A stretch of 64,000 bases of DNA. Origin: a bacterium. GTDB taxonomy: Bacteria; Babelota; Babeliae; Babelales; RVW-14. Below, in pieces: positions 19,705 to 20,553 of the stretch. Location: positions 14,562-78,561 of the forward strand of contig JBDRBF010000002.1 in the NCBI GenBank assembly GCA_043822925.1, written 5' to 3'. Under the pieces are notes generated by a model. The model saw only the letters and a list, made by a program, of their open reading frames with translations. It was not told where the DNA came from and did no database searches. The translations under genes and the position numbers were made by a program. Position 1 is the first letter of the stretch; each line of letters opens with the position of its first letter.

Positions 19705-20553
19705 ATGATGTGTTCTGGCGTTTCTACATACTTAATTGTCGGTCCAGGAACGTCGTTACAAGACTACACAGAATCGTTCATTCAAAAATCTCTCTGCCCA
19801 AATTATTCTGTTGTCATCCCAGACTTGCCTGTCCGCCATAGCTCCACAGGAGCGACGGCTGGAATCTGGGATCCAAGTTCACATAATAGTAAAAATAAAG
19901 CATCCTGTTTTTGTGCGACGTGCAGAAAAATTAAAGCACATCAATATCATGCATTAGTTTGGATCTGCCCAGCCCAAGATTATAAAATCGAAGATATCGA
20001 TATTATATTTGAAAAAGTTAGATTTTCGTTGGACCCAGGCGCACAGTTTTTCTTTGTGCTGGAAAAAGCAGAGACTTTATCGACGATTGTTGCTAACAAA
20101 TTATTAAAAGTGCTTGAAGAACCACCAGCCGGGTATAATTTTATTTTGACGACGACTAACCAGCAAGCAATTCTTAAGACTATATTTTCTCGTTGTTTTG
20201 TGATTAGATTGCCGGGCCAGTGCGATAGTACGCTTGAGCATCCGGTACTCGAATATTTTATGTATTCTTACAAAATGTCTGACTCGTATGGTTTTACTCA
20301 AGCGCTGCGTGCCAATAGGTTATCTGATACAGATAGCATGCTGCTGGCTGATTCTTTACTCGCGCACTTTGCGCATAAAGTAACAGAATATGTGAATAAT
20401 TCTGAACTTGTTCAAGACGCGCAGCAAACGACCCAATACGTACAGGCTCAAAAAGCGATAGAAGTTATCACGCATCATATGCGCAAACCGCCGCAGTCTG
20501 GCAGTTCTGAGTTGTTCTGGAAAAATTTGTTCTTACACTTTCCTCGCCCGTAA
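19705..20553 (+). CDS. holB: DNA polymerase III delta' subunit with an in-frame repeat-derived insertion
   Basis: NKLLKVLEEPP and IFSRCF motifs. ATG 19705 follows GGAG. The insertion YSVVIPDLPVRHSSTGATAGIWDPSS maps to 19804-19881. Confidence 0.75.
   Translation: MMCSGVSTYLIVGPGTSLQDYTESFIQKSLCPNYSVVIPDLPVRHSSTGATAGIWDPSSHNSKNKASCFCATCRKIKAHQYHALVWICPAQDYKIEDIDIIFEKVRFSLDPGAQFFFVLEKAETLSTIVANKLLKVLEEPPAGYNFILTTTNQQAILKTIFSRCFVIRLPGQCDSTLEHPVLEYFMYSYKMSDSYGFTQALRANRLSDTDSMLLADSLLAHFAHKVTEYVNNSELVQDAQQTTQYVQAQKAIEVITHHMRKPPQSGSSELFWKNLFLHFPRP
19804..19879 (+). repeat. Palindromic element inside the holB coding sequence
   Basis: TATTCTGTTGTCATCCCAGACTTGCCTG...GGAATCTGGGATCCAAGTT. Flanks match the copies at 20588 and 20693. 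Confidence 0.85.

Follow-up and report, generated by a model that had tools for sequence, protein, structure and literature searches.

A dispersed hairpin repeat read in frame within the HolB zinc-module loop of an uncultured Dependentiae bacterium, near a probable Ssn-type GIY-YIG nuclease gene

Introduction

Hairpin repeats lying in frame within housekeeping and replication genes have been described before, both as Rickettsia palindromic elements (RPEs) and as intragenic copies of repetitive extragenic palindromes (REPs), and the pairing of hairpin repeats with a nuclease is known as well. Here we analyze a locus in which the two phenomena occur together: a 78-nt hairpin repeat lying within holB, the gene for a DNA polymerase III delta-prime-like clamp-loader subunit, and, downstream of it, a gene for a probable Ssn-type GIY-YIG nuclease. 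The locus belongs to a stretch of 64,000 nt (assembly GCA_043822925.1, contig JBDRBF010000002.1, positions 14,562 to 78,561; hereafter the window, whose first letter is position 1) from an uncultured bacterium, assigned to the phylum Dependentiae (Babeliales) by its closest orthologs. A preliminary description, made from the letters of the window, had called the 78 nt a palindromic element within holB and likened it to the elements of Rickettsia.

The closest described repeats are the CGTC-tagged REPs, which consist of a CGTC or TGTC tag (CCTC is allowed), a stem of 8-9 bp opening with A-T pairs, a loop of 4-5 nt (some families have loops of other lengths) and a tail that is mostly CCA (PMC3733652). 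This superfamily includes Neisseria dRS3 as well as RPE-4 and RPE-6 of Rickettsia conorii (Di Nocera, De Gregorio and Rocco 2013, PMC3733652). Its families are mostly alphaproteobacterial, and its intragenic copies are frequent in replication and repair genes, where they encode peptides such as VIPAKAGI, VIPWLDHGI, RHPGGGRDD, WTPDQVRGD and ...AGMT (PMC3733652). REPs of the class served by REP-associated tyrosine transposases (RAYTs) carry instead a GTAG tag and are paired with a Y1 HUH transposase (PMC3733652). Rickettsia elements of the RPE-1 type are about 150 bp long with a conserved peptide in each family (Ogata et al. 2000, as summarised in PMC10969869).

The closest described partner proteins are the Ssn GIY-YIG nucleases (Chenal et al. 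2025, PMC11893778). NTS/SRM hairpins are bound by them exclusively in single-stranded form, and the cut falls a few nucleotides upstream. Cleavage depends on the GTC of the tag; binding depends on the C that follows the palindrome, the most important base for binding by SsnA. The loop sequence can be changed and the loop lengthened (PMC11893778). The ssn genes typically have the motif on both flanks, and the role demonstrated in Neisseria is the limiting of transformation, not repeat mobility; the paper mentions neither intragenic copies nor Dependentiae (PMC11893778). Our literature search likewise found no paper on palindromic repeats in Dependentiae.

Results

A Hairpin Repeat Lies in Frame in holB

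The gene, the insert and its core are as follows.

19705..20553, + strand: holB, DNA polymerase III delta-prime-like clamp-loader subunit, 282 aa, identical to NCBI MFH1831208.1
19804..19881, + strand: the insert (residues 34-59); besides the core it comprises 8 nt of shared flank on the upstream side (TATTCTGT) and AGTTCA downstream
19812..19875, + strand: core hairpin unit (copy B), with TGTC at 19812-19815, ATCCCAGA at 19816-19823, loop at 19824-19864, TCTGGGAT at 19865-19872 and CCA at 19873-19875

The insert is 78 nt long and contributes 26 stop-free codons, read as YSVVIPDLPVRHSSTGATAGIWDPSS in the holB frame, so that the coordinates, length and peptide given in the preliminary description were all correct. 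Its GC content is 0.54, compared with 0.40 for the remainder of holB. In the protein it is preceded by SLC31-PN and followed by eight residues (HNSKNKAS) and then by CFCATCRK; the earlier placement between SLCPN and CFCATCRK is thus borne out, apart from the spacer that it left unmentioned. The two ends of the insert, TATTCTGTYGTCATCC at the 5' side and ATCTGGGATCCAAGT at the 3' side, are each present at exactly three positions of the window, 19804, 20588 and 20693 (the chance expectations are 0.05 and 0.13, and three occurrences were reached in none of 100 shuffles). Translation of the intergenic copies at 20588 and 20693 in the holB frame gives YSVVILT...IWDPS and YSVVIPDLIWDPS, which confirms the claim that they encode kindred peptides. 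The palindromic character that had been proposed was also recovered: the 64-nt core has a perfect 8-bp stem (ATCCCAGA/TCTGGGAT) around a 41-nt loop with a nested GC-rich hairpin, and the insert folds accordingly into an outer stem enclosing an inner hairpin (minimum free energy, MFE, -26 kcal/mol, z -2.2). TA flanks are possible target-site duplications for this copy and for two further ones (copies C and D below); copy A has a TT ambiguity.

An Rfam scan found no family at the insert region and, in the whole window, only two tRNAs. When the exact 5' end TGTYGTCATCCCAGACTKG was sought across species representatives (the source genome is not included among them), 22 singletons from unrelated taxa were obtained, which is about the estimated chance level, and beyond such singletons no species representative shares this end.

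The product has the features of a delta-prime subunit, namely a DNA_pol3_delta2 domain (Pfam PF13177, 5e-24, with a match that begins only past the insert), a four-cysteine zinc module and the clamp-loader AAA+ fold. Its match to the NCBIfam model TIGR00678 holB (2e-23) reaches 83 bits, which is under the family cut-off of 180.6 bits. The Lys-Thr of Walker A is absent and an SRC motif is present. In an AlphaFold2 model (mean pLDDT 86.5) residues 31-67 form a low-confidence coil with almost no regular structure and the remainder is confidently folded; with this model Foldseek matched gamma, tau and delta-prime chains of the E. coli clamp loader, the top TM-scores being those of delta-prime chains. 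The nearest relatives are proteins of Dependentiae/Babeliales (27-53% identity), and the gene order DegT-tmk-holB is common to the window and the closest ortholog. No second holB was found within the 64-kb window.

The Insert Is Absent from Most Orthologs

To place the insert among its relatives, HolB was aligned with 32 orthologs (33 sequences in total), and loop lengths were counted in 60 parsable orthologs. The extra segment at the insert site is absent from 28 of the 32 aligned orthologs. It is bracketed by Cys31 and by Cys68-x-Cys70-xx-Cys73, all four of which are invariant in the 33 sequences, and profile comparison with solved structures aligned them to the four zinc cysteines of E. coli gamma. 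In the window HolB the Cys1-Cys2 loop has 36 residues, and 10 after the 26 are subtracted. Among the 60 orthologs this loop most often has 6-8 residues and has 14 or fewer in 54 (normal range 6-14). All 28 positions that are invariant in the orthologs are kept in the window HolB, on both sides of the insert. Because the segment is missing from most orthologs and its ends match the intergenic copies, the insert is repeat-derived and not ancestral, as the preliminary description had held. Two of the checks proposed there, an ortholog alignment and a structure model, came out in its favor, the latter with the insert in the low-confidence coil and the clamp-loader fold retained.

The same loop has been lengthened elsewhere. 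In two further HolB orthologs it is extended by tandem or low-complexity repeats, and in the HolB of one lineage (P0017/P0037, about 40% identical to the window HolB) it carries GC-rich palindromic inserts, one of 117 nt (GC 0.60 in a contig of GC 0.32; MFE -39.7 kcal/mol) and one of 186 nt (MFE -82 kcal/mol). A homologous segment at this site in distant orthologs had been named in advance as an observation that would speak against a repeat-derived origin. Palindromic inserts do occur there in the P0017/P0037 lineage, but they differ in sequence from the window insert and look like separate insertions, so that the origin proposed for the window insert is unaffected. These inserts, together with the tandem and low-complexity expansions, show that the HolB loop is permissive and was struck at least twice by palindromic elements.

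Extra sequence is also found at the other end of HolB. The C-terminal variable region in P0037 and P0017 (loci L024 and L025) contains GC-rich repeat-like inserts as well, for example HPEEERSRACPELCRRVSKDRPEQGAEV, and that of P0028 and P0010 contains other long inserts.

The Insert Is Present in Other Strains

Two contigs from sister strains were found through two near-identical members of the GIY-YIG protein cluster from other samples. The first (L153, JGI 3300014656, 1398 bp) aligns to window positions 19772-21118 and covers the left junction and the whole insert; the second (L154, ENA ERZ27247128, 1365 bp) aligns to 19813-21118 and covers the last 69 nt of the insert and the right junction. 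Each is 99.4% identical to the window, with the same eight differences, and the insert is in frame in both. Since it is spanned wholly by the one and over its last 69 nt by the other, the insert is not an artefact of one assembly. The single difference inside it is a C to T change at 19873, which turns IWDPSS into IWDSSS. Both contigs terminate at the repeats.

The Repeat Family in the Window

The tag YGTCATCC occurs 12 times in the window, where 1.7 occurrences are expected (none of 100 shuffles reached 12). Besides copy B, the following copies and fragments were recognized.

20588..20661, + strand: copy C, intergenic, with a CGTC tag, a degenerate 5' arm and a loop containing the cosmopolitan module CCCGGCGTAGCCTTGTGCGAAGCCTGGG
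20693..20733 (core 20701-20728), + strand: copy D, intergenic minimal unit, 36 nt upstream of the GIY-YIG gene
21069..21140 (core 21107-21134), - strand: copy E, minimal unit with an adjacent GC-rich module, forming a perfect 31-nt inverted repeat with D
26627..26762, - strand: copy F, composite unit in frame in gpsA (open reading frame, ORF, 25963-27057, minus strand)
6381..6425, - strand: copy J, degenerate module read in frame within the acyl-CoA synthetase ORF 5183-6883 (minus strand)
9560..9612, + strand: copy A, intergenic, the filled member of a filled/empty site pair, 62 nt inserted at ATCTTGAT^TT when compared with the duplicate stretch 8582-8669, with a two-base ambiguity
28996..29056, + strand: copy G, intergenic, 9 nt past a stop codon, stem ATCCTGGA/TCCGGGAT with a compensatory change, CCA tail
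37909..37936, + strand: copy M, minimal AT-rich unit, TGTC-ATCCTGAA-CTTGT-TTCAGGAT-TTA, whose stem shows three compensatory pairs when compared with D
6878..6931, + strand: copy K, tagged unit that overlaps the start codon predicted for the acyl-CoA synthetase gene
7182..7224, + strand: further tagged intergenic unit, TGTC-ATCCTAC-(15 nt)-GTAGGAT-ACA, with a compensated stem
47151..47200, - strand: module fragment I, in frame in a TolB-like ORF, peptide CFDKLSTSATGD

The minimal unit, represented by copies D and E, is CGTC-ATCCCAGA-CTTGA-TCTGGGAT-CCA. The tag is CGTC in copies C, D, E and F and TGTC in copies A, B, G, K and M; the stem is perfect in B, D and E and has compensated variants in G and M; the loop has 5 nt (CTTGA or CTTGT) in D, E and M; and the CCA tail is found in B, D, E and G. 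The majority of copies sit shortly 3' of stop codons. Ten of the 12 tags are on the + strand, a sample too small to call a bias.

The loops change quickly. In the loop of copy E both sister strains (L153, 1336-1398; L154, 1295-1361) carry the 36-nt inner module of the holB copy, where the window has the bare CTTGA. As these strains are 99.4% identical to the window, the module must have been gained, lost or copied between units over a very short time. Part of the loop material is also shared across lineages: the 117-nt insert in the HolB of the P0017/P0037 lineage has a module in common with window copies C, E and F (21 of 23 positions identical, z about 10).

A 22-mer, TTCGCCAAGGCTWCGMCGGGCA, lies inside the loops or flanks of the same three copies (20610-20641, 21071-21101 and 26664-26696) and was found in at least 120 metagenome contigs (loci L029-L148). 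The GC contents of these contigs run from 0.30 to 0.70, so the 22-mer spans many lineages. Two of them (L112 and L137) hold whole composites like copies C and E with compensated stems, one (L033) bears the reverse complement of the inner module of the holB copy, and three (L078, L088 and L126) have tandem arrays of about 37 nt.

HolB is not the only protein of the window with repeat-derived residues. Copy F accounts for about 36-43 residues of GpsA that are absent from a related GpsA, and it splits the Pfam N-domain match; copy J adds 14 residues to the acyl-CoA synthetase, absent in 20 orthologs; and the TolB-like ORF probably reads through module fragment I, judging from its translation. The reading frames differ, the holB copy being read in the VIP frame and the gpsA copy in the RHP frame, which argues against selection for one particular peptide.

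The GIY-YIG Gene and Its Flanking Hairpins

One gene stands between two inverted units.

20764..21069, + strand: probable Ssn-type single-domain GIY-YIG nuclease gene, 101 aa (PF01541, 7e-14), between inverted units D and E

It begins 0.9 kb downstream of the holB insert, and the perfect 31-nt inverted repeat formed by D and E encloses the ORF. At E below 1e-10 the protein has 3236 homologs, of which the best 120 are 56-76% identical over about 95 aa; among the matches listed, many sit on very short contigs. Residues Y7, Y18 and E65 correspond to the catalytic Y6, Y17 and E64 of N. meningitidis SsnA with an offset of one, when the sequence is read against PMC11893778. This correspondence gives indirect support to the view that the 101-aa protein probably belongs to the Ssn family.

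Three distinct homolog loci, on four contigs, were examined, and in all three the GIY-YIG homolog lies amid tagged hairpins of the same design. In a TM6 groundwater genome (L149/L150) and in another metagenome-assembled genome (L151), which represent two further Dependentiae lineages, the homolog is bracketed by inverted units; in the alphaproteobacterium Maritalea porphyrae (L152) tagged units stand on both sides and the nearest two have the same orientation. The window protein is 63% identical to the 94-aa homolog of Maritalea, whose flanking unit fits the SRM search motif; this too supports the Ssn assignment indirectly.

Upstream of the homolog in L151 (1252-1370), five tandem half-sites TTGTCATCCCCGAC, spaced about 21 nt apart, are followed by one complete hairpin. 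A candidate second GIY-YIG copy near 60.8 kb of the window was rejected as a chance AT-rich similarity within an unrelated ORF.

Comparison with Described Repeat Systems

With the CGTC-tagged REPs the window units share the CGTC/TGTC tag, an 8-bp stem starting A-T/T-A, the CCA tail and, in the minimal copies, the 5-nt loop, as well as their dispersal, mostly 3' of genes with some copies intragenic and in frame. Six-frame translations of the units give VIPDL..., CRHPRL..., WIPDQVWDD and ...SGMT, peptides of the same type as those of the superfamily (VIPxxxxGI, RHPG..., W(T/I)PDQV..D and ..GMT). They differ in the loop of the holB copy (41 nt and a hairpin nested in it, against 4-5 nt), in the host phylum and in the stem, which is AT-richer. 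In the text and the available supplementary files of PMC3733652, holB is not among the target genes.

The likeness to the NTS/SRM-Ssn system lies in a single-domain GIY-YIG gene of about 100 aa between inverted hairpin copies, in many dispersed copies, in a hairpin with an upstream (C)GTC and a C directly after the palindrome, and in an enrichment in host-associated bacteria. The type of the partner protein and the class of the system have thus been described before, in 2013 for the repeats and in 2025 for the nucleases.

The comparison with Rickettsia drawn in the preliminary description proved to be more than an analogy, because the units have the tag, stem, tail and peptide signatures of the superfamily that holds RPE-4 and RPE-6; it does not extend to the long RPE-1 type. 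With the latter the insert shares the maintenance of a selfish palindromic repeat in frame in unrelated housekeeping genes of a bacterium of the obligate intracellular type. It differs in its length (78 nt, with a core of 64 nt), in the differing frames of its copies and in showing no sign of sequence homology. REP/REPIN-RAYT systems, finally, resemble the locus in their short hairpins recognized as single-stranded DNA, in a single-copy nuclease gene between repeats and in mosaic clusters; the tag in the window is however CGTC/TGTC, and the gene between the repeats encodes a GIY-YIG protein.

Discussion

We estimate at roughly 0.8 the probability that the 78 nt come from a dispersed hairpin of the CGTC-tagged REP or NTS/SRM kind, a copy of which inserted into the zinc-module loop of HolB and is tolerated there, with its Ssn-type partner encoded nearby. 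The copy would have entered a surface loop between the first and the second cysteine ligand of the zinc module. Because its length is a multiple of three, it has no stop in frame and the loop tolerates length, selection on the essential holB would not have removed it, and it would now be translated as a 26-residue loop that the structure model suggests to be disordered and that may be neutral for HolB function. By analogy with the described nucleases, the Ssn-type protein may recognize the window hairpins when the DNA is single-stranded, and either this nuclease or recombination and gene conversion between copies could spread the repeats. The survivors in essential genes would then be only those copies that keep the frame and lie in tolerant loops.

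Several observations count against this explanation. No close holB allele free of the insert was found, the nearest ortholog being only 47-53% identical. The published SRM search motif, HGTCWYN(0-2)YYVSBRHN(0-5)WNVSBRGN(0-2)RNCYNB, has no match in the window; units D and M and the unit of L149 fail it, whereas the Maritalea unit, which flanks the homolog of the window nuclease, and the Neisseria NTS pass. The motif is a heuristic built from GC-richer stems, and from this pattern the Dependentiae units appear to be an AT-richer variant that it misses; class membership accordingly rests on anatomy and gene association. In the literature no paper shows Ssn proteins moving these repeats. The holB copy itself may no longer be a nuclease substrate, since its tag is TGTC and not CGTC, its loop has 41 nt and, in the sister strain, the C that follows the palindrome is gone. 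In the window strain, however, the copy retains that C together with the tag's GTC and a perfect stem, so it may still be a substrate, and by analogy its long loop fits the tolerance of Ssn nucleases for extended loops (PMC11893778).

A bolder extension would be that Ssn nucleases and CGTC hairpins are the missing machinery of RPE-style in-frame decoration of housekeeping proteins across phyla, Dependentiae included, that the loops are landing pads for a second set of modules, cosmopolitan and GC-rich, and that insertion is targeted and not random. Targeted insertion would explain why the same zinc-module loop of HolB was hit separately in different lineages; we nevertheless regard this extension as unlikely.

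Among the other explanations, the one that survives best is that the repeats, the holB copy included, are moved by an IS200-like Y1 (HUH) transposase as REPs are by RAYTs, with no part for the GIY-YIG protein. A gene for such a transposase is present in the window.

8895-9326: IS200-like Y1 transposase gene (PF01797, 1e-27)

It lies in a cassette (8582-9664) in which inverted repeats of about 50 nt (8673-8722 and 9402-9462) flank the gene; a stretch of about 90 nt, repeated directly and almost identically on either side (8582-8669 and 9514-9664), encloses the cassette, and its second copy is interrupted by hairpin unit A. A Y1 gene between such inverted repeats is the "TIRtron" arrangement of PMC3733652. 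In favor of a link, the 9-mer CGTGCCCGG is confined to the Y1 flanks and to two loops, those of copies C and F (four occurrences, 0.07 expected), and copy A is 100 nt from the cassette. Copy A was moreover inserted directly 3' of TTGAT(T) with no clear target duplication, a pattern which we take to resemble the behavior of IS200/IS605 elements. The Y1 flanks, however, lack the tagged hairpin and align weakly with the elements (local alignment z about 3.3-3.5); on this account Y1 mobilization is the weaker explanation. The protein scores as IS200 (82.5 bits, cut-off 55) and not as a REP-associated transposase (31, cut-off 80), the holB copy has no CGTGCCCGG module, and it is the GIY-YIG gene, not the Y1 gene, that perfect unit copies bracket in the window and in the other loci examined. 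We therefore consider mobilization by the Y1 protein quite unlikely.

It is very unlikely, in our judgment, that the insert has been co-opted under positive selection, whether as a new interaction surface of HolB or as a hairpin through which the nuclease or messenger RNA structure controls holB. Its in-frame presence in two strains, the palindromic inserts in the same loop of another Dependentiae lineage and the frequency of intragenic REPs in replication and repair genes reported by Di Nocera et al. (PMC3733652) would agree with co-option. The peptide is nevertheless predicted to be disordered and none is conserved between the holB (VIP) and gpsA (RHP) frames, a long insert is absent from this loop in most orthologs, the tail has already undergone a non-synonymous change in the sister strain, and the loop is otherwise expanded by simple tandem or low-complexity repeats, which one would expect if it is permissive.

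That the insert reflects a chimeric assembly at a repeat, or that this holB is a pseudogene replaced by another copy, is hardly credible: the sister contigs end at repeats, which shows the difficulty they pose to assemblers, and 64 kb of the genome are covered, but the left junction recurs in the JGI contig together with the insert in full, the ENA contig continues from 19813 through the right junction, the ORF is intact with the 28 invariant ortholog positions kept, the window has no second holB, and an element of 78 nt is shorter than the usual short read.

Two literatures that have not been joined, the one on in-frame palindromic inserts in housekeeping genes and the other on Ssn nucleases with their hairpin motifs, meet in a 1.4-kb stretch of an uncultured Dependentiae genome, which holds both a hairpin-bracketed nuclease gene and a hairpin that is read through in an essential replication gene. 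Current understanding is not overturned; a known phenomenon is extended to a new phylum and a new gene. What is new is the phylum, the zinc loop of HolB as a target that was also struck separately in another lineage, the enlarged and polymorphic loop of the hairpin, the failure of the SRM motif and the presence of both phenomena in one locus. In practice, searches with the SRM motif will miss AT-richer variants, the 36-nt loop module varies between strains that are 99.4% identical, and the loop between the first two zinc cysteines of HolB is unusually permissive.

Other Features of the Window

The end of tmk, the gene preceding holB, may itself be repeat-like: its last seven codons and stop (19598-19623, ACHPTWG*) are encoded by TGTCATCCCACCTGGGGTTAA, which resembles a degenerate tagged unit on the basis of an 11-nt match only. 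The predicted ATG of the acyl-CoA synthetase gene (6878-6885) is the reverse complement of the CAT within the tag and stem of hairpin K; the alignment to orthologs improves when it starts at the second Met, so translation probably begins downstream of this ATG. One ortholog of this synthetase (P0103) has an N-terminal extra segment, ERVIGDLSRRSPGEVGAKT..., that resembles a translated GC-rich repeat. GC skew is positive across the whole window, which therefore probably lies on one replichore. An intergenic, near-perfect palindrome of 25+25 nt at 60339-60388 (AAAAGAGACAGAGCGATGATGATTT / AAATCTTCATCGCTCTGTCTCTTTT) is probably a bidirectional terminator outside the repeat family.

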